Assembly (NCBI GenBank): GCA_041645215.1
Contig: JBAZQK010000004.1
Location: forward strand, 2,475-66,474
DNA from: Patescibacteria group bacterium
Lineage (GTDB): Bacteria > Patescibacteriota > Patescibacteriia > Veblenbacterales > UBA10138
DNA: 64,000 bases
Direction: 5' to 3'
The position numbers were made by a program, and so were the translations under genes. This document shows, in pieces, positions 5,008-39,433 of the stretch (positions within the stretch are counted from its first letter, which is position 1; every line of letters starts with the position of its first letter). The notes beneath the pieces were generated by a model. It did not search any database and was not told where the DNA came from. It saw only the letters and a list, made by a program, of their open reading frames with translations.

Positions 5008-6243
5008 TTATTCAGCCGCCAGGCTGGCGCCGGCCGTTTGTCCGGTTGCCCAAGCTGATTGCAAATTAAAACCGCCAGTAAATCCGTCTATATTCAAAAT
5101 CTCACCAACCAAATAAAGTCCCGCGCATACTTTGGATTGCATTGTACGCGGATCAACCTCGGTTAACTCTACGCCGCCGGCGGTAACAAACTCATCCCCG
5201 GCCCGGCGACCAATCACATTCAGTGGCAAATGCTTTAATCGTTGCTCAACCTGGTGCAAATCATATTTGCTCATAGCGGCGTTTTTCTGTTCCGGTGGAA
5301 TACTAAGTTGCCGGCATATTAGTTCGGCGACTGACAGTGGCACAAAATTATGTAAGGTATTTTTAAAACTTTTTTTAGGGTTGACCGACACCAGACTTTT
5401 TAATTCTGCCGCCATGGTCGCAACTGTTAAATCCGGCAACAAATCAATATAAACCGCCAGTGGCTTAGTGGCGCTATAATCAACAAACGCCATTAGTGAT
5501 GACAGAGCAAATACCGCCGGTCCGCTAATACCCCAATGAGTAAATACCAACGGACCCAAGGCGGCTTGGTATTTAGGCGTATCAGTCTGAATTTTCACCT
5601 TAATCAACGACACGCCAGTAAGTCGAGCCGGCCACTGCTCCTGAGTAGTAAAAGCATTAAGACTGGGCGCGAGTGGCGTAATATGATGCCCCAGCTGCTC
5701 GGCCAAACTATAGCCATCGCCAGTTGATCCGGTGTAACGCCGGGCTTGGCCACCTAAGGCCAACACGACCCTGTCTACTGCCAGCGACGGTTGAGTGGCA
5801 AAATCAACCCTAAACCCCTGGGCAGTTTTGGCAATATGCTTGACGGTATGCTTAAAAAGTAAGGTAGTTTTATGTAATGCAAAAATATTCTCAAAAACCT
5901 TAACCACCTCCTCGCCTTTGTTAGATAAAGGAAACAAACGACCGTCCGCCTCGCATTTAAGCGGTACATTATGATTGGCAAACCAAGCCTTGACTGCGGC
6001 CGGCGGAAAACGATGCATGGCTGAATTTAAAAATTTACCACCGCGGGGATATTTGCTAAGCACGACTTTTATATCAGTAAAGCCAGTGGTGACATTACAG
6101 CGCCCGCCGCCGGAAATAATTACTTTTTTACCCAGCGAGTCGTTTTTTTCCAACAAAAAAATTTCTATCTTGGGGTTAAGCTCGTTAATAGCGGCGGCAC
6201 ACATCATACCAGCCGCTCCGCCACCCACCACGGCAATTCTCAT
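5008..6243 (-). CDS. NAD(P)/FAD-dependent oxidoreductase, HI0933/YhiN-like flavoprotein
   Basis: N-terminal dinucleotide-binding motif MRIAVVGGGAAGMMCA. GGGRCNVTT motif characteristic of the HI0933 family. Confidence 0.85.
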   Translation of the reverse strand: MRIAVVGGGAAGMMCAAAINELNPKIEIFLLEKNDSLGKKVIISGGGRCNVTTGFTDIKVVLSKYPRGGKFLNSAMHRFPPAAVKAWFANHNVPLKCEADGRLFPLSNKGEEVVKVFENIFALHKTTLLFKHTVKHIAKTAQGFRVDFATQPSLAVDRVVLALGGQARRYTGSTGDGYSLAEQLGHHITPLAPSLNAFTTQEQWPARLTGVSLIKVKIQTDTPKYQAALGPLVFTHWGISGPAVFALSSLMAFVDYSATKPLAVYIDLLPDLTVATMAAELKSLVSVNPKKSFKNTLHNFVPLSVAELICRQLSIPPEQKNAAMSKYDLHQVEQRLKHLPLNVIGRRAGDEFVTAGGVELTEVDPRTMQSKVCAGLYLVGEILNIDGFTGGFNLQSAWATGQTAGASLAAE

Positions 6244-6365
6244 ACATTATTATTTTTAAATATTAGATAAATTCTACCTTAGCACATCTTAATTGCTCTA
6301 AACCAGCCGCCTTAACTGCCATTAAACTTTTATTGCTTGGGCGGCTTCCCGGGCGACAAGGCAAA

Positions 6366-6395
6366 CAAAAACACCCCGAACCTGTCGGGGTGTTT
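6366..6395 (-). terminator. intrinsic terminator downstream of cold-shock gene
   Basis: aacaCCCCGAcaggtTCGGGGtgtttttgtttgc on the minus strand: hairpin plus T-run. Confidence 0.55.
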
Positions 6396-6405
6396 AAGTT
6401 TACCG

Positions 6406-6603
6406 TTAGATGCGGCGAACATTGACGGCGCGCGGGCCTTTTTCAGCCTGCTCAGTATCAAACGATACTTTGTCGTCAACATGAAGCTCGTCAAAAGTTA
6501 CATCAACGAGAGCGGACGAGTGAAAAAACAAGTCCTTGTCTTGACCTTCGGGGGTAATGAAACCAAAACCCTTGTCAGTCAGACGCTTAATCGATCCATT
6601 CAT
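6406..6603 (-). CDS. cold-shock protein (CspA family, S1-like OB fold)
   Basis: 65 aa. KGFGFITPE and VFFHSSAL-type RNP motifs (KGFGFITPEGQDKDLFFHSSAL). Confidence 0.95.
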   Translation of the reverse strand: MNGSIKRLTDKGFGFITPEGQDKDLFFHSSALVDVTFDELHVDDKVSFDTEQAEKGPRAVNVRRI

Positions 6604-7018
6604 AGTAATATTTAAAATTATGAATTATGTGCTAATTTGAGCCTCAGAGCGGAAACTCGACCAATCTCCCGTTTAGGCTTTTTCGCAAACTCAATGTACC
6701 ATAATCTAACAATAGTGTAAAGGGCTATATATTTATTGCTATTGGAAACAAATTTTAAAACCCATATAAAACCGCCAACCATAGTGGCTCACGATTTTTT
6801 ATTTGGCTCCAAATAATGGATGATACTCGAACTTATTTTATGAAGGCTGGCGCTCAGGAATATAAGTTACCAGTGGGGGCAATATAACCGCGCAAAGTTG
6901 CCTTTGTGAAAATAAGAAATGGTAATTGGACCAGCAACAAGTTGAATAATAGTAAACCCCGTTACACCCCGCCGAATCGGCGGGGCATTTTTGGGGAAGA
7001 TTTTTAATTTCCCATTCA

Positions 7019-7083
7019 CCCCGTTAGAAGTCTCCACCAGTGGTGGAGTATCCCGACAGCCATTGGGATTGCTTCCAACGGGG
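7019..7083. mobile_element. MITE-like element, CCCCGTTAGAA-TIR family (short copy)
   Basis: ccccgttagaag...cttccaacgggg terminal inverted repeats. Flanked on both sides by ccccgccgaatcggcgggg hairpins and an outer ccccgttacaccc / gggtgtaacgggg inverted pair. Confidence 0.55.
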
Positions 7084-7973
7084 TTCATCCCCGCCGAATC
7101 GGCGGGGCATTCTGGGTGTAACGGGGTAAATCGCCAGGAAATATTATGTGAAGGAATAGAGTAGCAAGACTTATTTTTAATGTCTCAACTTGCCCAACTC
7201 CGCCGCTAAATTTTATACCAAATTCTTACTATTCGCCTATTTCCTCCAAACCTGCCTGCCCACGGTCCCGCTGCGACGGAACCTCGCCTATAGCGGGGTG
7301 TGACCGGCAGGCAGGGGCGGGCGCGCGAATTAGATCATGGAAAAGATAGGATGGACAATCAAAAGTATGGTTCAACTTTTTAAAACCAATAGCCTCACCC
7401 AATAAAATAAATAGTATTAACCCCCCAGAGCAGGCTCTGGGCTCATATTCTGATTTTAATCCCGTAGCAAGCGGGCGCGGTATTATGATAAATGGAACTC
7501 CCTCCCGCTGTCCGCCGGCTGGCGGAATCCGGAGGTTATTCTGACGAAGCCCCGCTAAGCGGGGCGGAGGCGGATAAAAGAATCGAGTATCGAATAATTA
7601 AAATAGAACCCCCCAGCTAAAGCCGTGGTACCTGTCCCAACGCTCCTGCGGGGCGAACCGTAACACATATTGTGCGGCCGCACAATATGTGTTACGGCAT
7701 GCGGCCAGCGTCAGCCTTGGTCCCGAACTTTGCTCTGGTACAAAGGCGCCAGCGGACCAATTCACTCACCTTTGATGTACATCGGGGTGATCCTCTGGAC
7801 GCTGCGCTAGAATGAGTTGTGTTTTAACCTCTTGCTTTATTACCTAAAGGTTATATTTTTTTATACATCTCGCGCCATCAAATTTTGTGTTAAATTGTTA
7901 CTATTCGCCTATTCCCTCCAAAGGCGGGCAGACGCACGAATTAGATCATAGAAATGAACTACCTCACAGCCAG

Positions 7974-8051
7974 CCCCGTTAGAAAGCTTTGCACCGAGGA
8001 ATCTCAAAATGAGATATTAAAAACAAACTTAAAAACAACTTTCTAACGGGG
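7974..8051. mobile_element. MITE-like element, CCCCGTTAGAA-TIR family (short copy)
   Basis: ccccgttagaaagc...ctttctaacgggg, 13-bp perfect TIRs, AT-rich interior. Confidence 0.55.
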
Positions 8052-8317
8052 CAAACCGACGAGGTATTGACAGCGGAGGAGAATAATAAAGAGATTGATT
8101 AAACATATTGTTCGGCCATTTGAATTCAATAATCCACAAAGTGAAATGAAACTCCCTGCCGATGTACAAAAGGGAGGGTATGCTGGCGCAGCCCCGCTTG
8201 GACGGGGCGCAGAAGAATAAACACCTCCGGTTGTAGAAATCTTCAGGTGTTTAAAATGCCACAACTTTGCTCGGGCGCCGCCCCGCCGAATCGGCGGGGC
8301 GCCGGCGGAAGTGATAA

Positions 8318-9889
8318 CTAAGGCTTAATTCCCTCTGCCGGCATGGTTTCGGCTGGAGCTGGCTTGGGCGACGGCACAAATTTATTGATGTCGAAATTTA
8401 AACTGGGCGGGTTAAATTGTTGTAACCCATTTTCCCAAGGCATCACATCTTTTTTACCCGTTAACTCCTGCATGTTGTTGTCAAAATCATTCCTTAACTC
8501 TTGCATTTCCATCAAACCCGAGGTGATTGCCTCTTCATCAATTGGCTTGACTTTGACTAATTCTAAAATTTCATTACCCTTGGCTTTGGACTGATTAAAC
8601 AGATCCTCTAATCCCGCCGTGTCAATTTTTTGCCGCTTTAATCTATTGATTTGCAGTTGCGCTTGGTTGATGCCTTGCTTAAATTCTCTGGTAAATTGGC
8701 CCAAATTGCTCATTGTTTGAATGACTCGTTGGTTTTGCCAGACATCTTCCATTTGACCAAAAAAGTCATCCGGCAGCGATTCAAAAATACCTTGAGCAAT
8801 TTCAGCATCACCGATTTGGATTTTATTGACAGCTTCATCTCTGACGGCTTTTAATTTATTAACCGCCGCCTCAAAGTCAGTATAAAGCGAAGTCAGGTCA
8901 ATGCCTTTTTTTTGCAGGCGGTCCACAATACTTTTACTGCGCTTGAGCGCGCTAGTCAGTTGTTTTAACTGTCTGTCCATATCCCTCAGGGTCTGCGGCC
9001 AGCGAACAAACATTTCCAACTGTTGACGGCTTTGTTGCAAATTGTCCATAAATTCCTGGATTTGATCAAGTCCGGCGTTTTCAATTTCGGTCCAGGTTTT
9101 GGCGTTGTTAATAATAGCAATAACAGCTTTTAATTTATCAAGGTTGTCAGTCACCTGGATTGGAACGCCTATTTTTTGTCTTTTCAGGGTAGCAATCTGC
9201 TTTTCAAACATTTTCACATCCCGTTCCAGACCACGCATATTGCGTTTAATATCATTAATCCGTTGGGCGGCCTCAACATATTCCTGGCGCGCTTCTTCTA
9301 GTGACCGCATCTCTTCGTTTAATCCTTCCATATCAATGTCCCCCATTTCATCCGTACTTTGGGCGACTTTAACAGATTTTATTGTTTCTTTAACTTTGGT
9401 TAGTTTGTCTTTTACTTCCGTGGGAATGTTAATGCCTTTCTTTTCCGCACTTTGGAACATGCGCTCCAGCCTGGTTAAATTAAGACCCATTTGATTTAAG
9501 CCGCGCTTCATGTCTGATAACTGCCGGTTTCTGTTTTCTTGTTCTCTTTTCATCATGTCTTCTTCACTCGGCCCAGCTGGCGCTCCGCTTGGACCAAAAC
9601 TTTCGCCCCCCGGACTCATGGGGCCTTGGTTATAATTACTGCACGGCCCGGGCATTTCTTGGCCGTTAATATTGCAAGTTTGTCCCGAGGTGTTAGGTTG
9701 CATTCCTGCTGGCGGTTGTGGCAAGGGTGTTTGTTCACCCAAAACTTTTTGTCGGCTCACTTTCCAGGCGTCTTTAAAATAGCTCGGCACTTCCAGATAA
9801 AAAGCTTGGGCCGGCATGGCTACCAGCCAAACGACTAATAATGCCAAGATAATATTAAATTTCCTGGCAAAAGATGATAATTTACACAT
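8318..9889 (-). CDS. hypothetical secreted/membrane-anchored coiled-coil protein
   Basis: N-terminal signal/TM (LALLVVWLVAMPAQA), Pro/Gln-rich low-complexity region, then a long heptad-rich coiled-coil region. Confidence 0.65.
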   Translation of the reverse strand: MCKLSSFARKFNIILALLVVWLVAMPAQAFYLEVPSYFKDAWKVSRQKVLGEQTPLPQPPAGMQPNTSGQTCNINGQEMPGPCSNYNQGPMSPGGESFGPSGAPAGPSEEDMMKREQENRNRQLSDMKRGLNQMGLNLTRLERMFQSAEKKGINIPTEVKDKLTKVKETIKSVKVAQSTDEMGDIDMEGLNEEMRSLEEARQEYVEAAQRINDIKRNMRGLERDVKMFEKQIATLKRQKIGVPIQVTDNLDKLKAVIAIINNAKTWTEIENAGLDQIQEFMDNLQQSRQQLEMFVRWPQTLRDMDRQLKQLTSALKRSKSIVDRLQKKGIDLTSLYTDFEAAVNKLKAVRDEAVNKIQIGDAEIAQGIFESLPDDFFGQMEDVWQNQRVIQTMSNLGQFTREFKQGINQAQLQINRLKRQKIDTAGLEDLFNQSKAKGNEILELVKVKPIDEEAITSGLMEMQELRNDFDNNMQELTGKKDVMPWENGLQQFNPPSLNFDINKFVPSPKPAPAETMPAEGIKP

Positions 9890-10998: not shown

Positions 10999-11448
10999 AT
11001 TATATCACAGTCCGTGTTTACTTACGTAAAGTAAAAATATCAGATTCAATCAGGTGATTTAACTGGCCCCGGGGGTCACTTCGACAAGCTCAGGACACAT
11101 TAAACCAAAACCATTCGCCAGGCTCATTGTTTTTAAAATTCGACAGGCCCATGGCACAAAGCCATGGGCCTGTCGAATGGCTCCCCAGCCATCACGCTGT
11201 TATAAGTTTGCTATCGAATATAGATTACTCAAATACTGGATGGCCTTAAAATTATAGCTCCGGGTCGTGGTGCCTGCCTGACGGCAGGCAGGGACATTAA
11301 AACTGGAGTGATAGCTAAGGCTGCAGCCTTAGCCTAAGTACCCCACACCCCAGCACCAGCATAGCTTCCTATTGACTCATTATTTCTTTTATTGTAAGGT
11401 CTTTATGAAGACCACAAAAGTACCCAACAAACAAAAAAAGAGGTAAAA

Positions 11449-23848: not shown

Positions 23849-26230
23849 TTAATTCTTATGAAATTTCCAAACAACGTCATAGGCCAAATCCGCAAGTTCT
23901 TCTTGTCTTTCTCTTATTTCTTTCTCGCCCCATTTATAATTAAGTTTTTCAAATTCTTTGATTAACTTTTTATTAATTTCTAAATCAGACCTCCTAAATT
24001 CACCAACTTTTTCTTGCAACTTTTTATTTCCAACTAAACCATTTATTTTTTTAGCTATTAATGTTAAGTTGCCTAACATATTAACATAATTCTTTATTTC
24101 TTTTTTAGTTAGCGACCATTGAGAGGGATCCTGCGGTAAAACATGTTCGATATTAACCTTTGTAAAATTTAAAGTTTTCTCTTCGGTTGCAGATAATGCC
24201 TTTTCTATATTGGAGAGAATGTAAAGAACAAGTTGATAATTTCTGTACTCAATTTCTAAAAACTTCTCTTTAAATAATGACTTATTCGGATAAGAAAGGT
24301 TTTTTTCGAACTGCGATAATGCTCTTTGTACATTTTTGATTATATTTTCCTTGCTACTAGAATTCTCTATAGCTTTTCTGACCTCCTTCGCAGCGTTGAA
24401 ATAAACCCTTTCTACAACGTTCCCAGATAATTTGCAAACGGCAGAATATGCAAAATGGTACCTTTCAATTACTTTAAAAATTTCGCTGAAATCATACTCA
24501 ATCTTGTCTTTATTCATCAATAAACATAGCACCAACGAATAACATTGAGTTATCCCCATGATCCTTAATCCGGCCATGGCCTCGTTAATTTTCTGAGCTG
24601 TTTTCTTTTCTTGAAAATCCTCTAACCAATCTTCGGGACTTATTGAATCATTAGCAATTTTATAATAAAATCCAGAAGCCTTCTGTAATTCTTGCAAGAA
24701 CGCCCTTGGATCGCCCTTAACTTCGTTTTTTATTTCTTTGTAAAGTTTCTTTTCTGGAACAAAAGAATATCTCGAAAGCCAAAAATATCTAATAAATTTT
24801 GAAACATTCAATGGTCCTCTTGCGCTTTCAACGTTATTCTCAATGTTACTCCAAATATCCTTCGCAACATCTTCTCCCCCAGGAGTTTTCGGCAACTTAC
24901 CAAAAAGATAGTTCTTTAATAAATCAGCCGCTGTTAGGTCTGCTCCGCGTGCGTTGACGGTTTCAAATATAGAATATGCGTCTTCTTCATTTTCTATCTT
25001 TATTAAAATTATTTTTAAACTAAATATTCTTGCTTTAAAATCGTCTAAACATTTAACTTTATCTTCTAAATTAAATTGATTAAGATCTTCGCTTATTTTG
25101 TCTCGGATAAACTCATAATTAGATTTTATTAATTTTTCCTCTTTTGTTTTTGGCTTAGAGGCTAGAATATTAGAATCTTGCTTCTGGATATGTTCCGTAA
25201 AAAAGTTGTTCAACGAATCTCCGCACTTTAATCTGTTTTCTTGTTTCGCAGTAACAGGATCTTTGCGTGCTATTATACTTTGCGTAAGAATCGATTTTTC
25301 AGTTTGATCTAATTCTTTGTATTTATCTCTAATAACGGCCATCAATATGGTTAATGTTATTAACCTTTGCTGACCGTCTATAACCTCAACAAAACCGTCT
25401 TCATCGTATCTTTCATAGTTGAAGACAAAAGATCCTAAAAAAGTGCTCTCTCCACTAATCAAATCACCCCACAAATCGGAAACTTGATCATTGGTCCACG
25501 AATATGGTCTTTGATATCTCGGTATCTTATATTTTTCCTCACCATCATATAAAATAGCCCTTAGCTCTATATCGACAGCACGAAAATCCAATTTATCGAT
25601 TTTTTGCCTATTATAACTAATGGTATTATACTTCATATTGTTCCCACTTTTTACATCAGAATTTTCTAAATTATCTTCCGTTTGTTTGTCGTTTTTTCTT
25701 GTTTTAATTTTTGTATCTTTCTTTTTCTGAATCATTTTGTCAGTAATTATATACGATTTCTTAATTTTCATAAGTCTCTTTTCGGATAACGGGTATTCCT
25801 TTTTATCTTTTTGAGAGCCCTCCAAAAGATTTTTAATCGTGTTGCCATCTTCCTCGTTTAACCTATTCGGGGACCCTCGTCTGATCCCTCCCCATTTTTT
25901 GGCTATCGTTAATTCAGAAACGATCCGATCTGCTGGAACGCTATGCAAAAGATCTAAAGTTATTACCGGCTCAATATCCATTAAGCATGGGAATGGTCCG
26001 CCTCTCCAAACTTTCTTTGATGCCTCATGGCTAAAATACGGTTTTGAGATTACTTTTAAGATGCCCGAAAAACGCATTTCTCCTGTTATATAACAAACTA
26101 AAAAATCTCCGGGTTTAATTTGCTGGGTTAAATGCCATCTATTTTCGCGAAACCCACTTAATTTAAAATTATTCTTTTTTGCTTCCTCCCAGGTTTCAGG
26201 AGTGAATAAATCTAACCAATATTGAGTCAT
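23849..26230 (-). CDS. GmrSD-like type IV restriction endonuclease (EVE/PUA-like N-domain + DUF262 + DUF1524)
   Basis: N-terminal EVE-like modified-base reader fold pattern. DUF262 motifs YQRPYSW and DGQQRLITL. C-terminal DUF1524/HNH-like NIEHVLPQ. 793 aa. Confidence 0.8.
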   Translation of the reverse strand: MTQYWLDLFTPETWEEAKKNNFKLSGFRENRWHLTQQIKPGDFLVCYITGEMRFSGILKVISKPYFSHEASKKVWRGGPFPCLMDIEPVITLDLLHSVPADRIVSELTIAKKWGGIRRGSPNRLNEEDGNTIKNLLEGSQKDKKEYPLSEKRLMKIKKSYIITDKMIQKKKDTKIKTRKNDKQTEDNLENSDVKSGNNMKYNTISYNRQKIDKLDFRAVDIELRAILYDGEEKYKIPRYQRPYSWTNDQVSDLWGDLISGESTFLGSFVFNYERYDEDGFVEVIDGQQRLITLTILMAVIRDKYKELDQTEKSILTQSIIARKDPVTAKQENRLKCGDSLNNFFTEHIQKQDSNILASKPKTKEEKLIKSNYEFIRDKISEDLNQFNLEDKVKCLDDFKARIFSLKIILIKIENEEDAYSIFETVNARGADLTAADLLKNYLFGKLPKTPGGEDVAKDIWSNIENNVESARGPLNVSKFIRYFWLSRYSFVPEKKLYKEIKNEVKGDPRAFLQELQKASGFYYKIANDSISPEDWLEDFQEKKTAQKINEAMAGLRIMGITQCYSLVLCLLMNKDKIEYDFSEIFKVIERYHFAYSAVCKLSGNVVERVYFNAAKEVRKAIENSSSKENIIKNVQRALSQFEKNLSYPNKSLFKEKFLEIEYRNYQLVLYILSNIEKALSATEEKTLNFTKVNIEHVLPQDPSQWSLTKKEIKNYVNMLGNLTLIAKKINGLVGNKKLQEKVGEFRRSDLEINKKLIKEFEKLNYKWGEKEIRERQEELADLAYDVVWKFHKN

Positions 26231-26998: not shown

Positions 26999-28507
26999 AT
27001 GAAATATTTTTTATACATTAGAAAATCAACAGACGAGGACGACAGACAAGTTTTGTCGTTGGAAGCGCAGGAAACGGAATTGAAAGAATTTGCCTTGCGG
27101 GAAAATCTTTTGATCGCCGCGACTTTTCGAGAATCGCAAACTGCCAAAGAGCCGGGCAGACCGATTTTCAACGATATGCTCAAACGAATGGAAAGCGGCG
27201 AAGCCGAAGGGATTTTAGCGTGGCACCCCGATAGATTGGCAAGAAATAGCATAGACGGCGGACGAGTTATTTTTCTGATTGATACCGGAAAAATCAAGGC
27301 GCTAAAATCCCCGACATTTTGGTTTGAGCCGACCCCGCAAGGCAAATTTATGTTGAATATCGCTTTTGGGCAATCCAAATATTTTGTGGATAATCTTTCA
27401 GAGAATACCAAAAGAGGGTTGCGTCAAAAATTGCGCCGAGGCGAATTGCCCGGCTATGCTCCGCTCGGCTATTTGAACGATTTGCTAAAGCACACAATGT
27501 ATAAAGACCCAGAGAGATTTCGCCTCGTCAAGAAAATTTTTGAACTTTACGCAACTGGCAATTATTCTCTGAAAGATGTGCGGAAGTTAATAACTTCCGC
27601 TGGCTTGTTGAGCCGAAAGAAAAATATGCTTTCCGTTTCAAATATCCAAAGCATACTTTCAAATTCTTTTTATTACGGCGTTTTCAAATATAACGGCGAA
27701 ATGTATGACGGAAAGCATGAGCCAATGATTCCAAAGAAACTTTTTGAAGCGTGCCAAAAAGTAATGGCGGATCGTTCGCGCCCGAAAAAACCAAGCCAAA
27801 AAGAATATCCATTTAGAAATATGCTCGTTTGCGGTGAGTGCGGGTGCGCCATCACTTCCGAAACGCAAAAAGGACATAACTATTATCGTTGCACCAAAAA
27901 GCGGGATAAAAAATGTTCGCAAAAATATATTCGCGAGGAAGTTTTGGCAAGCCAGATTAAAGACGAGATTCAAAAAGTTTCTTTGTCTTCCGCTTGGGCG
28001 GAGTGGATGTTAAGCGAGATGAATAAAGAAGAAGCGGAAGCCGCCCAAAGCGGAGCCGTTTTCGCTCAAAATCTTAAAGACAAAATAAAAGAACTTGAAG
28101 GAAAGCTCGACCTACTTTTGGACGCACATTTGGACGGCACAATTTCTCGCGAGGAATACACCGCTAAAAAGGAAAAAATCATCAACGAAAAAAGCGAGTT
28201 TTCCGAAAAATCAAAGGATTTTGAGCGAAACGGCAATCATTGGCTCGAACCGGCCAGACAATTCATTTTAGCGGCTCAACAAGCCAAAATTGTCGCTTTG
28301 CAAGAAAATCCCGTCGCGGGACGGGATTTTCTCAAAAGGATTGGCTCGAACCGCGTTTTGCTTTCGCAAAAGGTGGCGATTGAACCCAAAAAATCTTGGC
28401 AAATACTATACAACCTGCCTGCCGAGGCGCGAAGCGCCGAGGCAATAAACTCACAACATACAATTTGGCTCCGGGGGTGGGACTCGAACCCACGACCAAG
28501 TGCTTAA
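26999..28507 (+). CDS. large serine recombinase (resolvase/invertase catalytic domain + recombinase domain + zinc ribbon)
   Basis: N-terminal YIRKSTDEDDRQVLSLEAQ (catalytic Ser), recombinase domain, Cys-rich CGECGCAITSE...YYRC, coiled-coil tail. The last ~50 codons are encoded by IR-B copy 2 and the tRNA-Asn 3' end. Confidence 0.9.
   Translation: MKYFLYIRKSTDEDDRQVLSLEAQETELKEFALRENLLIAATFRESQTAKEPGRPIFNDMLKRMESGEAEGILAWHPDRLARNSIDGGRVIFLIDTGKIKALKSPTFWFEPTPQGKFMLNIAFGQSKYFVDNLSENTKRGLRQKLRRGELPGYAPLGYLNDLLKHTMYKDPERFRLVKKIFELYATGNYSLKDVRKLITSAGLLSRKKNMLSVSNIQSILSNSFYYGVFKYNGEMYDGKHEPMIPKKLFEACQKVMADRSRPKKPSQKEYPFRNMLVCGECGCAITSETQKGHNYYRCTKKRDKKCSQKYIREEVLASQIKDEIQKVSLSSAWAEWMLSEMNKEEAEAAQSGAVFAQNLKDKIKELEGKLDLLLDAHLDGTISREEYTAKKEKIINEKSEFSEKSKDFERNGNHWLEPARQFILAAQQAKIVALQENPVAGRDFLKRIGSNRVLLSQKVAIEPKKSWQILYNLPAEARSAEAINSQHTIWLRGWDSNPRPSA
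28347..28472. repeat. IR-B copy 2 (inverted), ends with core TTGGCTCCG fused to the tRNA-Asn 3' end
   Basis: Identical to the reverse complement of 26772..26898. The core equals the last nucleotides of tRNA-Asn (GGAGCCAA). Confidence 0.9.
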
Positions 28508-28540
28508 CAGGCACCTGCTCTACCACTGAGCTACCCCGGA
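28466..28540 (-). tRNA. tRNA-Asn (anticodon GTT), CCA encoded
   Basis: Cloverleaf folded by hand. Acceptor TCCGGGG/CCCCGGA, D-arm GCTC-AGTGGTA-GAGC, anticodon loop CTGTTAA, T-arm GTGGG-TTCGAGT-CCCAC, discriminator G plus CCA. Confidence 0.9.
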
Positions 28541-28800
28541 AAGTTAAATGACTTTTGTTTTAATAAACTTCTTAAATATTCTTTACCGCTACCTGATTTA
28601 AAATACTTCTCCCTTTTCCTGGCATCATTTCTACTACCTACTCTTTCCGAATAAACCAACACCCACGGATAGTAACCTTTAGTTGAAAAAACTCTTTTGT
28701 TATTATGTTCATGCAACCGCTGTTTAATATTTTGGGACATCCCAACGTATAATCGACGATCAATTGAACTTTGAATTACATAAATTGAATATATAGGCAC
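28531..28800 (-). CDS. small GIY-YIG nuclease family protein
   Basis: 89 aa: YSIYVIQS...RLYVGMSQNIKQRLHEHN...G (GIY-YIG core). Stop codon lies within tRNA-Asn nt 2-10. Confidence 0.85.
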   Translation of the reverse strand: MPIYSIYVIQSSIDRRLYVGMSQNIKQRLHEHNNKRVFSTKGYYPWVLVYSERVGSRNDARKREKYFKSGSGKEYLRSLLKQKSFNFPG

Positions 28801-28841
28801 AACTCAATTATACACCTACTCCCTGCCTACCGGCAGGCAGG

Positions 28842-28861
28842 TACCGCTGAGCTACCCCGGA
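28842..28861. repeat. duplicate of tRNA-Asn 5' segment (nt ~1-17)
   Basis: accgctgagctaccccgga versus tRNA 5' end accactgagctaccccgga (28523-28541). Lies on the far side of the GIY-YIG ORF. Confidence 0.6.
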
Positions 28862-37613: not shown

Positions 37614-38165
37614 TTATTTAAACTCGCTAAAAGTAACTACAGTGATGTTATCCAGATTATAGCCGTAGTGCCTAAAGACTTCCCGTGCATCGCCGTCAAA
37701 TCTTTTTTCCCAATCAAGGCCGAGTTGATGGCAAACGTTTTTCAAAGATTCCACCGCCGGTCCTTCCATTTCCGCATAAACAGGAATCTTAGGCCAGGTG
37801 TCAATATCAATAGTTACGTCGCCCAGCTTAAAGGTATGCCGATACTTCTCTAATCGTCTTATCGCTTTTAATCCAGTACTTATTAAAAATTCCGAACATT
37901 CATTAAAATCCGATACTTCCAATTCAATTTCTTGCGCGCTGTCCACTGTTTGCCCCACATTCTCTTTATAAGTCAGCTTAACTTTATTTTTGGTTTGGCG
38001 TAGCCGCACAAACTTACCCTTTCCCTTCCACAATCCTTCTTTGTCGTGGAAAATTATTTCTGCCAATTTTTCTTCACCTTTATTAATCGCCCCGAGCGAA
38101 ACGAGTTTTTTGACCAGTTCATCTTTATTTATATCCAAAAACCTGGTTTCTATTTCCTTTTGCAT
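37614..38165 (-). CDS. CYTH-domain protein (class IV adenylyl cyclase / triphosphate tunnel metalloenzyme)
   Basis: N-terminal EIETRFLDI (CYTH ExExK-type motif) and ~180-aa size. Confidence 0.75.
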   Translation of the reverse strand: MQKEIETRFLDINKDELVKKLVSLGAINKGEEKLAEIIFHDKEGLWKGKGKFVRLRQTKNKVKLTYKENVGQTVDSAQEIELEVSDFNECSEFLISTGLKAIRRLEKYRHTFKLGDVTIDIDTWPKIPVYAEMEGPAVESLKNVCHQLGLDWEKRFDGDAREVFRHYGYNLDNITVVTFSEFK

Positions 38166-38415
38166 AACACCTAATTAAAATATTAATCCGCGGAAGGGGC
38201 AATCTGTCCCGTGGTGCCTTGCGGCCCATCCCGAGTTCCATCGGTCCGATGACTCCGTATGAGGCCGAGTATTGGGCTCCATCGGAGGACGCACTATATT
38301 TCCCTGTGCGGAGAGGAAGGCCCCGCAGTAGAACTGTAAATTCACTACGGGGTAAAGATTCGCCACCGCAGAGCGGGGTCCCGCTTGGCGGGAAACCCTA
38401 CCTTATCCTACTCAT

Positions 38416-38769
38416 CTATCCCACCCAGAGCGGAGAGGGCGGGATTTGAACCCGCGATACCTTGCGGTATGCCGCCTTTCCAAGACGGTGCACTAGACCA
38501 CTATGCGACCTCTCCGCTCTGGGCAAGATTCTCGCCCATGAGTATTTTAAATTGTATTCCCCCCTTATAGGATTTAATTTCTCTTTCCCGACGATACGCT
38601 TCAGACCTATTAGGAAAACTCTCTTGAAAATAAGCCTCCATGGCCGATAAGGCTTTGTTGAGCGAACTGTACCTCGGTTATGCTGTGTCAGTCGAACGTC
38701 AATATCTACAGCAGAACCAATGTAGTAACGGCCACTGCTTAAGCCTTTTAAAATATAAACGTAAAACAT
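38416..38769 (-). CDS. small GIY-YIG nuclease family protein (ORF reads through tRNA-Ser)
   Basis: MFYVYILKGLSSGRYYIGSAVDIDVRLTQHNRG... GIY-YIG core. The ORF track extends it N-terminally to 38919, probably spuriously. The frame stays open across the whole tRNA-Ser. Confidence 0.7.
   Translation of the reverse strand: MFYVYILKGLSSGRYYIGSAVDIDVRLTQHNRGTVRSTKPYRPWRLIFKRVFLIGLKRIVGKEKLNPIRGEYNLKYSWARILPRAERSHSGLVHRLGKAAYRKVSRVQIPPSPLWVG
38431..38515 (-). tRNA. tRNA-Ser (anticodon GGA), long variable arm
   Basis: Acceptor GGAGAGG/CCTCTCC, D-arm CGCA-TAGTGGTCTAG-TGCA (as typed in reasoning), anticodon loop TTGGAAA, 17-nt variable arm, T-arm CGGG-TTCAAAT-CCCG. Confidence 0.9.
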
Positions 38770-39049
38770 AAGTTGCTTTCTACCGCTAAGCGGCATCCTC
38801 CCGCATACAGGGTCCCGCCATGCGGTGACGTCAGCGGGCCAAACAGACACACCCCGCATTCTGCGGGGTAAACTAGACCACTTTACCCCGCCAGAGGCGG
38901 CGGTAGGCGATCTCTCCACTGGCTATATAATTAGGTAAATTTACACCGCAAGCGACTTTCACCTTAACACTTTTCGCCTAAAAAATAAAGCCCCCTAATC
39001 ATTCTTAATTGAAGATTAAAAGGGCCATAAAAAAGGGAAATACTAAACT

Positions 39050-39433
39050 CTAAACTCTACTCTTGGCGGCTGTTACGGTTTGGACCACAGAAATAATATT
39101 AGTGCCAATTATCTTAACGATGCCATTATCGTTTAAAACTTTTGTTTTAATAGCAGCAGCGGAGTTTTTCAACTCATCGTTAAATGACAAATTCTTTTCC
39201 AAAGTCATTAAGACATACCCATCATCACCTAAACTGTTGCTTAAAAGTTTTAGATCTTTTAAGTTTTTAATTGTAAAAGCCCCCAAGATAGGGCCCAATA
39301 TCAGATAAGCGGTTTCAATTGTAACATCAGACTTTGTTGGATTAGAGCCAGCAATCATTATTAACTCCTTGTTTTTAGTGATTATTTTAGCGGCATATTT
39401 TGTCGCGTTAATTAAAAGACCGATTTTATCCAA
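39050..39433 (-). CDS. hypothetical protein (possibly fasciclin-like)
   Basis: 127 aa. Weak resemblance to the FAS1 C-terminal NGVIHVID block (NGIVKIIGTNII). Confidence 0.4.
   Translation of the reverse strand: MDKIGLLINATKYAAKIITKNKELIMIAGSNPTKSDVTIETAYLILGPILGAFTIKNLKDLKLLSNSLGDDGYVLMTLEKNLSFNDELKNSAAAIKTKVLNDNGIVKIIGTNIISVVQTVTAAKSRV

Follow-up and report, generated by a model that had tools for sequence, protein, structure and literature searches.

The window analysed here is the whole of a 64,000-nucleotide stretch of DNA from a Patescibacteria group bacterium (contig JBAZQK010000004.1). Its minus strand carries a tRNA-Ser(GGA) gene that is abutted by a small gene for a GIY-YIG nuclease and flanked by broken pieces of tRNA-Ser, and these parts together form a candidate mobile element of tRNA genes. 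Read in the direction of the tRNA, the order is a broken 5' part of tRNA-Ser (psi-5'), the dead nuclease gene, the intact tRNA-Ser and the broken 3' part or parts. The intact tRNA gene, at 38431-38515, is found by both ARAGORN and the Rfam tRNA model (55.9 bits), in accord with the original prediction, which was made from the sequence alone. CCA is not encoded, and nucleotides (nt) 1-15 of the tRNA are overlapped by the end of the nuclease reading frame in its repaired form.

The nuclease gene (38501-38769, minus strand) is a pseudogene of the Slx1/UPF0213 type, delimited by Pfam, tblastn and comparison with homologues, and would encode about 89 amino acids when repaired. The domain had been predicted to start near 38769; an ATG is found at exactly this position, with a Pfam match behind it. 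The N-terminal half, MFYVYILKGLSSGRYYIGSAVDIDVRLTQHNRGTVRSTKPYRPW, occupies one frame (38769-38638) and the C-terminal half (AYFQESFPNRSEAYRREREIKSYKGG...GEVA*; in full AYFQESFPNRSEAYRREREIKSYKGGIQFKILMGENLAQSGEVA*) the other (38635-38501), and tblastn likewise recovers the Ser-type nuclease as two segments in different frames. The two frames are separated by a 1-nt deletion at about 38636/38637, after a Trp codon. Restoration of one base yields an 89-residue protein and raises the score against the Pfam GIY-YIG family (PF01541, curated cutoff 22.6 bits) from 34.7 bits over profile positions 1-54 to 52.5 bits over positions 1-70. The Ser-type homologues are encoded by a single uninterrupted frame of 79-90 amino acids, which the window copy does not have. 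The repaired frame ends at a TAG (38503-38501) located 15 nt inside tRNA-Ser, and its last residues, G-E-V-A, are a translation of GGAGAGGTCGCA, the 5' end of the tRNA. The same GEVA ending is found in several database homologues.

The identical frameshift is present in L087, another metagenome contig, which is 99.8% and 98.7% identical to the window over two blocks. Because the lesion is shared by this second strain, it marks a real pseudogene and not a sequencing error. Programmed frameshifting at 38636 was considered and rejected, as inspection disclosed neither a slippery heptamer nor a +1 motif. As far as its sequence tells, the Ser copy in the window is a dead pseudogene accompanied by heavily decayed fragments.

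These results change the description of the open reading frame (ORF) that was originally reported to run through the entire tRNA-Ser without a stop. The 167-residue ORF in question (38416-38919, minus strand) is a mechanical entry of the ORF list and not a gene. It contains MFYVYILKGLSSGRYYIGSAV, beginning at the ATG at 38769; its first 50 residues are translated GC-rich non-coding DNA of the pseudo-tRNA and hairpin region, and its "read-through" of the tRNA is wrong-frame translation downstream of the frameshift. Many called proteins in the databases have terminal extensions of the same origin (AEWSNA..GSNP, ERWQSG, GEVA, AQLVEQ), and by a crude count 32 of 133 proteins have extensions translated from tRNA; for comparison, a core region 2.6 times as large yielded 9 hits. 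Entries P0074-P0223, P0003, P0012, P0017 and P0020 carry N- or C-terminal extensions from tRNA or hairpin DNA, and some consist of two domains fused across tandem copies. Such extended and fused entries are gene-calling artefacts like the 167-residue ORF of the window.

Upstream of the nuclease gene, psi-5' (38775-38922, minus strand) was delimited by reading of the sequence and by chained alignment, in which long insertions are allowed and 1000 shuffles serve as the control; MAFFT alignment of the fragments was uninformative owing to the insertions. It begins with the leader, the acceptor strand and the start of the D stem, CCAGTGGAGAGATCGCC (CCAGTG-GGAGAGATCGCC; 38906-38922), and continues with a 22-nt hairpin insert A (38884-38905), a copy of the D loop, AAGTGGTCTAGT (38872-38883), a hairpin insert B (38851-38871) and a copy of the anticodon stem and loop, GTGTCTGTTTGG, which extends up to G34/G35 (38839-38850). 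The copy is interrupted at anticodon position 34/35 by a degenerate double-hairpin cluster (38781-38838), after which the anticodon loop and stem resume with GAAAGC (38775-38780), and the ATG follows eleven nt further on. The fragment upstream that copies the leader and 5' end of the tRNA, first noticed as a short match, is real (38906-38922) and longer than originally noted, since it continues across the hairpin insertions. It had been cautioned that so short a match might be due to chance. Chained to tRNA-Ser, psi-5' reaches a score of 47 against 26.9 +/- 4.1 in the shuffles, none of the 1000 shuffles attains this value, and the controls at other loci gave 0/52. The psi-5' architecture is seen again in L003, L012, L024, L056 and L058, which are loci of other genomes.

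On the other side of the intact tRNA lies psi-3' (38302-38412, minus strand), which was identified by a repeat match, by chained alignment and by a pattern search for the double-hairpin motif. It is comprised of a remnant of the variable arm and T stem (38394-38412), a double hairpin in the T loop (38363-38393; GGGTT, then TCCCGCCAAGCGGGA-CCCCGCTCTGCGGTGG, then CGAATC), the CGAATC itself (38357-38362), an extra hairpin (38321-38352), and the 3' strand of the acceptor with the trailer, CCTCTCCGCACAGGG (38302-38316). Its chained alignment scores 33 against 22.3 +/- 3.8 in shuffles, 13 of 1000 being as good. A cleaner version is present in L087, where GGGTT is followed by the double hairpin and CGAATTCCCCTCTCTCCGC. 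A further segment with insertions, at 38190-38301 on the same strand, was found by repeat match and chained alignment (36 against 26.5 +/- 3.8; 21/1000) and is a probable second, older tRNA-Ser remnant, for which these values are suggestive only. Its sequence is hypervariable when L087 is compared with the window. The differences between L087 and the window are almost all insertions and deletions within the tRNA debris (L087 2310-2353, window 38244-38357), among them the gain or loss of one 32-nt hairpin, in strains that are about 99% identical elsewhere. The debris downstream of tRNA-Ser changes much faster than the DNA around it. The hairpins and psi-3' were not part of the original description; taken together, they show what appears to be a tRNA gene that was split and replaced, and not one that is merely preceded by an ORF.

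The GC-rich flanks do not correspond to a known RNA. Rfam searches of the window at the gathering threshold and of 38000-39200 at E <= 10 returned only tRNA and noise, with no intron, transfer-messenger RNA (tmRNA), RNase P or other known RNA that would account for them. Single-strand folding of the downstream flank was no better than that of shuffles (z = -1.1) and that of the upstream flank was modestly better (z = -2.8), which leaves one large RNA unsupported. Long-range complementarities between the flanks were also examined as a large RNA fold or as terminal inverted repeats, and are better explained as copies of a palindromic hairpin family in opposite orientation. Promoter and terminator scans gave nothing beyond shuffle expectation, and PADLOC gave no meaningful match to a defence system.

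A second module of the same layout is located at tRNA-Asn(GTT), an intact gene at 28466-28540 on the minus strand (ARAGORN; Rfam, 73.4 bits). Its nuclease gene (28531-28800, minus strand; ORF list) has a GTG start, encodes 89 amino acids, scores 52.4 bits against PF01541 and ends with a TAG 10 nt inside the tRNA; this copy looks intact. The Asn and repaired Ser proteins, both members of PF01541, can be aligned at 31% identity (E = 2e-13), which bears out the relationship that had been predicted for them. The broken 5' part (28813-28861, minus strand), defined by alignment and by comparison with loci L144-L149, consists of nt 1-20 of tRNA-Asn with 19 of 20 identical (28842-28861), a palindrome inserted in the D loop, CCTGCCTGCCGGTAGGCAGGG (28821-28841), and AGTAGGTG, which resembles nt 22-29 of the tRNA (28813-28820) and is followed by TATAATTGAGTT and the GTG. 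L144-L149 have the same palindrome at the same tRNA position. For the Asn-type subfamily 51 homologues were found, and its contexts repeat the layout, with the palindrome CCTGCCTGCCGG(C/T)AGGCAGG after nt 20. An alternative parsing of the Asn copy, with a break in the anticodon loop and a 6-nt deletion, was ruled out by the homologous loci, in which the palindrome follows nt 20 and the tRNA then resumes. The Asn module is a member of a sister subfamily that has a 20-bp palindrome of its own. A solitary palindrome of this subfamily, CCTGCCTGACGGCAGGCAGG, was found by pattern search at 11273-11292, where 0 would be expected by chance; it is intergenic, and its flanks TAGCTCCGGGTCGTGGTG faintly resemble pieces of tRNA-Asn. 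On contig ERZ1426827 two genes for GIY-YIG proteins of 82 residues are called one behind the other, with 45 nt between them, as an Asn-type tandem array.

The tRNA-Asn gene is also approached from its other side. A gene for a 502-residue large serine recombinase with Resolvase, Recombinase and zinc-ribbon domains (26999-28507, plus strand) extends 42 nt into tRNA-Asn, which lies on the opposite strand, and the GC content falls to 0.33 a few kilobases upstream of it (24000-26000). An integrated element may be present that uses the 3' side of the tRNA gene whose 5' side bears the GIY-YIG cassette. Such a neighbour invites the explanation that the duplicated tRNA ends are attachment-site scars of an integrase-mediated island, if they are not a chance resemblance. 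Chance is excluded by the shuffles and controls. No integrase is found near tRNA-Ser, where it is the 5' end that has been duplicated, with only about 320-400 nt, the nuclease included, between the copies; at tRNA-Asn the recombinase abuts the 3' side, and the 5' duplication again brackets only the nuclease. The layout moreover recurs in dozens of unrelated genomes without integrases. For the Ser module these comparative data refute the scar explanation, which can be given next to no weight.

The recurrence was established by a scan of one genome per species, in which 242 relatives of the Ser-type protein were found and 80 loci were kept. The hosts are mostly Patescibacteria and Saccharibacteria; the others are Ignavibacteriota, Bacteroidota, Omnitrophota, Bdellovibrionales and some metagenome-assembled genomes (MAGs) labelled Gammaproteobacteria. 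A tRNA on the same strand starts within +/-30 nt of the stop codon at 51 of the 80 loci, most often a Ser isoacceptor, then Tyr, and also Pro, Gln, Glu, Gly and Thr. Fifteen loci have a mirror layout, in which an intact tRNA ends at most 130 nt ahead of the start codon, and those whose sequences were read have a broken 3' tRNA part downstream of the ORF. Ten more have another same-strand tRNA within 400 nt, mostly in tandem arrays. Of the remaining four, two are contig ends with part of a tRNA, one is a read-through ORF that contains a tRNA, and one has a broken 5' part only. An upstream tRNA copy scoring at least 15 is present at 30 of the 52 loci in which a same-strand tRNA begins at most 30 nt beyond the stop codon. 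Two controls, the reverse complement and an upstream stretch farther away, gave 0/52 each, with a maximum of 11.5. Nine of the copies match nt 1-35/36 perfectly and stop at the second base of the anticodon. The scan of related genomes that had been suggested for GIY-YIG ORFs at tRNA genes with duplicated 5' fragments has thus produced them in number, and the proposed family of tRNA-linked GIY-YIG elements, of which the Ser and Asn modules were the first two instances, is borne out by the 80 loci, the Asn-type contexts and the syntenic comparisons described below.

The closest homologue on a complete genome, L001 (Saccharibacteria, CP064992.1), displays the parts clearly: a perfect 36-nt copy of tRNA-Ser(GGA), two hairpins, the ORF, 5 nt and the full tRNA. 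Another broken tRNA-Ser, of full length, is found further upstream (2681-2870); its T loop holds an insert, and the hairpin at 35/36 has collapsed. Tandem arrays of the form psi-ORF-psi-ORF-tRNA occur in L024, L072, L051, L018, L032 and L040. The broken and intact copies of L016, L056 and L114 derive from different tRNA-Ser lineages, and foreign tRNA sequence must therefore have been brought in. One genome can hold several diverged paralogues at different tRNAs, as do the window and CAZJOI01 (loci L038 and L081), and pseudogenes are known from the window and from L034. Nearest-neighbour proteins share the amino acid of their tRNA in 46 of 63 cases and the host label in only 23 of 63. Contigs often end within or just after the nuclease-tRNA unit (L011, L013, L020, L027, L045, L053, L057, L070, L073 and L077). 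The duplicated tRNA sequence probably breaks short-read assemblies, and such loci are then likely to be under-represented in MAGs.

Presence and absence of the cassette at one site were followed with the aid of the downstream neighbour of the Ser locus, a CYTH-domain protein (37614-38165), whose relatives were sought in metagenome contigs. The site is filled in the window and in L087, whose CYTH protein is 98% identical. In L090 (CYTH 77%) a hairpin-bearing broken 5' part directly precedes the tRNA and there is no ORF, and L126 (61%) is a clean empty site with no fragments or hairpins. L114 (73%) has a cassette at tRNA-Ser(TGA), with the same double hairpin on both sides of the ORF-plus-tRNA unit as direct repeats; the two hairpins lie within the broken 5' part and the broken 3' part, which mismatch each other. 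A homing-type presence/absence polymorphism at a homologous site is thus seen, among distant relatives only. Two other contigs, L095 (1664-1900) and L137 (311-560), have tRNA-Ser(GGA) without a GIY-YIG gene, yet with a 3' tRNA remnant downstream (...GCGGGCGAATCCCTCCCTCTCCGCC) that contains an insert of about 100 nt, not a hairpin, in the T-loop region. These remnants could be older or different invasions.

The hairpins follow a pattern of their own. The Ser/Tyr type is a double hairpin, CCACCGC(C)-loop-(G)GCGGGG then TCCCGC(C)-loop-(G)GCGGGA, which interrupts the broken tRNA at 35/36 in Ser-GGA and Pro, at 34/35 in Tyr and in the subtype of the window, in the D loop after nt 13/14 and sometimes in the T loop; the tRNA sequence resumes past the insert. 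The link to tRNA in the original idea of tRNA-5'-targeting elements is accordingly upheld, but not the restriction to the 5' end, as the anticodon is broken at 34/35 or at 35/36, the D loop is broken after nt 13/14 or after nt 20, breaks also occur in the T loop, and the mirror layout exists. The 100 nt that precede the ORF hold 92 perfect GC hairpins, where roughly 3-5 are found per 100-nt bin, an enrichment of about 20-fold. The loops of the double hairpin are hypervariable, 27 of 30 being distinct, and the stems constant, although the search pattern fixed part of the stems and their invariance is overstated; one stem position occurs as C-G, G-C and T-A. The motif can point either way with respect to the ORF, an observation in favour of an element acting at the level of DNA rather than RNA. 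Each hairpin family co-varies with a nuclease subfamily, the double hairpin with Ser/Tyr and the 20-bp palindrome with Asn, in the same role. In 57 control loci, selected through an unrelated neighbour, the double hairpin was matched only twice, each time in a locus with a GIY-YIG gene. The 64-kb window holds one double hairpin (38363-38393) and two Asn-type palindromes (28821 and 11273), and a scan of viral contigs gave no match to the double hairpin.

Conserved stems with free loops in short GC-rich palindromes, a linked small nuclease, both orientations and co-variation with the nuclease subfamily are features of repetitive extragenic palindromic sequences with their RAYT proteins (REP/RAYT) and of IS200/IS605, apart from the overstated stem invariance. 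In those systems the hairpin is served by a cognate HUH/Y1 enzyme that acts on single-stranded DNA, and the elements are dispersed genome-wide; here the enzyme is of the GIY-YIG type and the hairpins occur almost only within tRNA gene debris. In one alternative the palindromes themselves would be the primary mobile entities, similar to REP sequences or to miniature inverted-repeat transposable elements (MITEs), and their insertion into loop-coding parts would destroy tRNA genes; the GIY-YIG protein would be their nuclease or transposase, acting in trans, and the intact tRNAs beside the ORF would be duplications selected to make up for the damage. Hairpins without an ORF inside full-length broken tRNAs (L001 2681-2870, L040, L090), the two orientations, the solitary palindrome at 11273, the pairing of each hairpin family with one nuclease subfamily as in REP/RAYT or IS200/IS605, and the different hairpin content of two roughly 99%-identical strains all speak for this. 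The hairpins are, however, nearly confined to tRNA debris beside GIY-YIG genes, as the counts for the window and the control loci indicate, and by themselves they explain neither the constant contact or overlap of the ORF with an intact tRNA nor the perfect 36-nt duplications that stop precisely at the anticodon. Hairpins as the prime movers are on balance unlikely, and the proposal overlaps the cassette explanation given below without excluding it.

In the mirror layout a hairpin can take the place of a whole tRNA arm, as it does in two MAGs. The element TCCCGCTAAGCGGGA stands in place of the anticodon arm of a broken tRNA-Ile in L018 (2244-2300, Patescibacteria), and an identical TCCCGCTAAGCGGGA replaces the anticodon arm of a broken tRNA-Gly in L086 (2244-2330, Saccharibacteria), which is arm replacement and not simple insertion.

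The nuclease belongs to a very large family. A profile search hit 31,741 of 1.84 billion cluster representatives at E <= 1e-3; at E <= 1e-10 the number was 10,044. The catalytic residues, namely the two Tyr of the GIY and YIG motifs with an Arg, a His and a Glu, are conserved: Y5, Y16, G18, R26, H30 and E62 are invariant or nearly so in the homologues, and all of them are present in the window sequence, spread over its two frames. The nearest solved proteins by sequence are UPF0213 members BH0048 (1ZG2, E = 1.4e-13) and EF2693 (1YWL), followed by SLX1. An AlphaFold model of the homologue P0005 (CP064992.1), with a predicted local distance difference test score (pLDDT) of 96.5, gave the same order in Foldseek: 1ZG2 first, then Slx1 (TM-score 0.71, root-mean-square deviation 2.6 Å), against 0.56 for the UvrC N-domain and 0.47-0.50 for the I-TevI catalytic domain. 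No C-terminal DNA-binding module is present in the protein, which is a catalytic domain of about 80 amino acids with a tail translated from the tRNA 5' end. By sequence and predicted fold, the nuclease is best classed as a minimal prokaryotic single domain of the Slx1/UPF0213 type and not as a homing enzyme of the I-TevI type. A survey of the superfamily in 2006 (Dunin-Horkawicz et al., PMC1564403) described prokaryotic Slx1-like proteins as minimal stand-alone domains, with which the single domain of about 80 residues agrees in sequence and fold; it reported neither adjacency to or embedding in tRNA genes nor duplicated fragments or hairpins, and the function of the family was unknown there.

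The same survey lists fusions and operons of prokaryotic Slx1-like domains with a TrmH-like SPOUT methyltransferase and with COG4123 methyltransferases (PMC1564403). These associations, the size of the family and the tight coupling of gene and tRNA, which lie on the same strand and often overlap, would suit a cellular, non-selfish enzyme of tRNA or RNA metabolism that is co-transcribed with the tRNA, the fragments and hairpins being by-products of local duplication or else leader, processing or regulatory structures. Pseudogenes (window, L034), tandem arrays, broken tRNA copies that are sometimes of foreign lineage, and empty or ORF-less sites in related genomes are difficult to reconcile with such a role. 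Hairpins in both orientations argue for a DNA-level element, and several diverged paralogues at different tRNAs in one genome (window; L038 and L081 of CAZJOI01) are likewise unfavourable. A cellular function of this kind seems improbable.

The break at the anticodon raised another candidate. Group I introns in Patescibacteria tRNA genes are located at 35/36 and carry HNH endonucleases (PMC13011429), and the cassettes share with them the host phylum and this unusual position, at which many of the breaks are found and after which the GC-rich hairpins directly follow. The locus could be read as the remnant of such an intron with its homing endonuclease. The Rfam searches described above, of the window at the gathering threshold and of the region at E <= 10, gave no group I intron match, and a ribozyme core could not be accommodated: only 59 nt lie between the break and the ATG in L001, and only 5 nt between the stop and the tRNA. 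What follows the ORF is a complete tRNA and not a 3' exon, so that no splicing is needed, and the nuclease is of a different family from the HNH enzymes. The intron-endonuclease model TIGR01453 gives 19.9 and 21.2 bits, over about 35 residues only, against a cutoff of 56.05. An intron remnant is highly improbable and would survive only as an evolutionary origin. The shared 35/36 break suggests a common vulnerable site in tRNA genes.

These findings are best accommodated if a selfish cassette once invaded the tRNA-Ser(GGA) gene, replaced segments of it and left the region 38190-38922 as its wreck, an explanation that we consider probable, with appreciable room for error. The cassette would consist of the minimal GIY-YIG gene (about 80 amino acids), one or more GC-rich palindromic hairpins, and tRNA sequence that rebuilds a working tRNA. 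Its insertion would split the resident tRNA gene at loop-coding positions and leave the displaced 5' and 3' pieces as flanking pseudo-fragments, while the cell would retain one intact tRNA abutting the nuclease ORF. The nuclease would break DNA in or beside the tRNA gene. Because it is Slx1-like, has no DNA-binding domain and is associated with breaks at loop-coding positions, it would probably recognise a DNA structure (a hairpin, cruciform or junction, formed by the hairpin elements or by extruded stems of the tRNA gene) and not a long sequence. Repair would then proceed by recombination with a cassette-bearing copy, the conserved tRNA serving as homology arms, either as homing-like gene conversion or, equivalently, as Campbell-type recombination through the carried tRNA segment. 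A carried segment from nt 1 to about nt 43 would produce the order broken 5' part, ORF, intact tRNA, and one from about nt 15 to the end would produce the mirror layout. Re-cutting of the rebuilt tRNA in repeated rounds could give rise to tandem arrays and graveyards of fragments. The cassette would probably be transcribed from the tRNA promoter, and RNase P would free the tRNA.

Several observations weigh against this explanation. The rebuilt tRNA does not differ from the presumed target, and a simple homing enzyme that recognises a sequence would therefore cut its own locus again; the tandem arrays may be the trace of such re-cutting, but the explanation does not account for self-immunity. 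The protein is an 80-residue catalytic domain without an evident DNA-binding module, and the fusions and operons with methyltransferases could point to a cellular role at the level of RNA. Empty and filled sites are compared between relatives whose CYTH proteins are only 61-77% identical, and not between near-isogenic strains. All-against-all similarity of the short proteins, at about 50-55%, is too flat for a convincing phylogeny of horizontal transfer, and the all-against-all nucleotide comparison of the 80 loci yielded few pairs that define the ends of the element.

More broadly, the elements may represent an unrecognised class of bacterial mobile elements, in which a structure-specific GIY-YIG nuclease of the Slx1 type and its own palindromic hairpins break tRNA genes at loop-coding positions, spread by recombination through the tRNA and carry the tRNA segment that saves the host; from the comparison of sequences we regard this wider proposal as evenly balanced. 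The element is widespread and apparently undescribed. A search of full-text literature for GIY-YIG proteins with tRNA genes, Patescibacteria or UPF0213 did not find the arrangement described; most subscription journals were outside its scope, and a prior description is possible.

Partial parallels exist. In Allomyces mitochondria a GIY-YIG ORF at the end of atp6 was reportedly recognised by Paquin, Laforest and Lang in 1994 as a mobile endonuclease ORF that carries a replacement piece of the host gene. In "fractured genes" a free-standing homing endonuclease is reported to lie between gene halves (PMC2677866). These cases resemble the present one in that an essential gene is invaded without an intron, a duplicate segment is supplied and the old segment is left as a pseudo-fragment; they concern protein-coding genes, organelles or phage-like contexts and classical homing enzymes, whereas here many bacterial tRNA genes are hit, the breaks lie at loop positions, hairpins occupy the junctions, and both 5'- and 3'-replacing layouts occur. 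In phage T4 the GIY-YIG nuclease SegB, encoded in a tRNA gene cluster, cleaves DNA and, through the recombinational repair that follows, brings about preferential inheritance of itself and of the tRNA region next to it; no intron is involved (PMC2330249). A GIY-YIG nuclease gene is lodged among tRNA genes in both systems, but SegB is a phage enzyme of the I-TevI type with DNA-binding modules, and the cassette has a bare 80-residue Slx1/UPF0213-type domain, resides in bacterial chromosomes, splits and rebuilds the tRNA gene, and carries cognate palindromes.

Members of the UPF0213/bacterial Slx1-like family (about 10,000 clusters at E <= 1e-10), whose role has so far been unknown, are now placed in tRNA genes with hallmarks of selfish DNA. 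If the proposal is true, it would give this orphan family its first biological role and define a class of thousands of protein clusters, concentrated in Patescibacteria and present also in Ignavibacteriota, Bacteroidota, Omnitrophota and Bdellovibrionota. It would account for tRNA gene fragments and for assembly breaks at tRNA loci in these genomes. If confirmed, it would also be a case of an essential RNA gene invaded without an intron by means of a supplied replacement piece, with cleavage that may be structure- rather than sequence-specific. On the practical side, hairpin-riddled pseudo-tRNAs and tRNA fragments would mislead the annotation of tRNAs, many nuclease entries in public protein sets have ends that are translations of tRNA, and metagenome contigs often break at these loci.

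Two minor features of the window remain to be described. About 2 kb at 6240-8330 is devoid of ORFs of at least 120 amino acids and has one short cold-shock-like ORF at about 6415-6603. It contains the hairpin CCCCGCCGAATCGGCGGGG three times (6967, 7089 and 8279) and other GC hairpins, and palindrome arms CCTGCCTGCC...GGCAGGCAGG, about 45 nt apart, are found near 7252-7313. This region may represent further debris of hairpin elements, or small repeats of another family. The other feature is an inverted repeat (38423-38523, minus strand), 94% complementary, that encloses the intact tRNA-Ser and includes the leader CCCAGAGC (38516-38523) and the trailer GCTCTGGG (38424-38431). The pairing of leader and trailer adds at least 8 bp and brings the acceptor stem to 18 bp. 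The relative with the empty site, L126 (2140-2252), has a different leader/trailer pair that is likewise complementary (CCGGTGC/GCACCGG), and the complementary leader and trailer may be a conserved processing stem.

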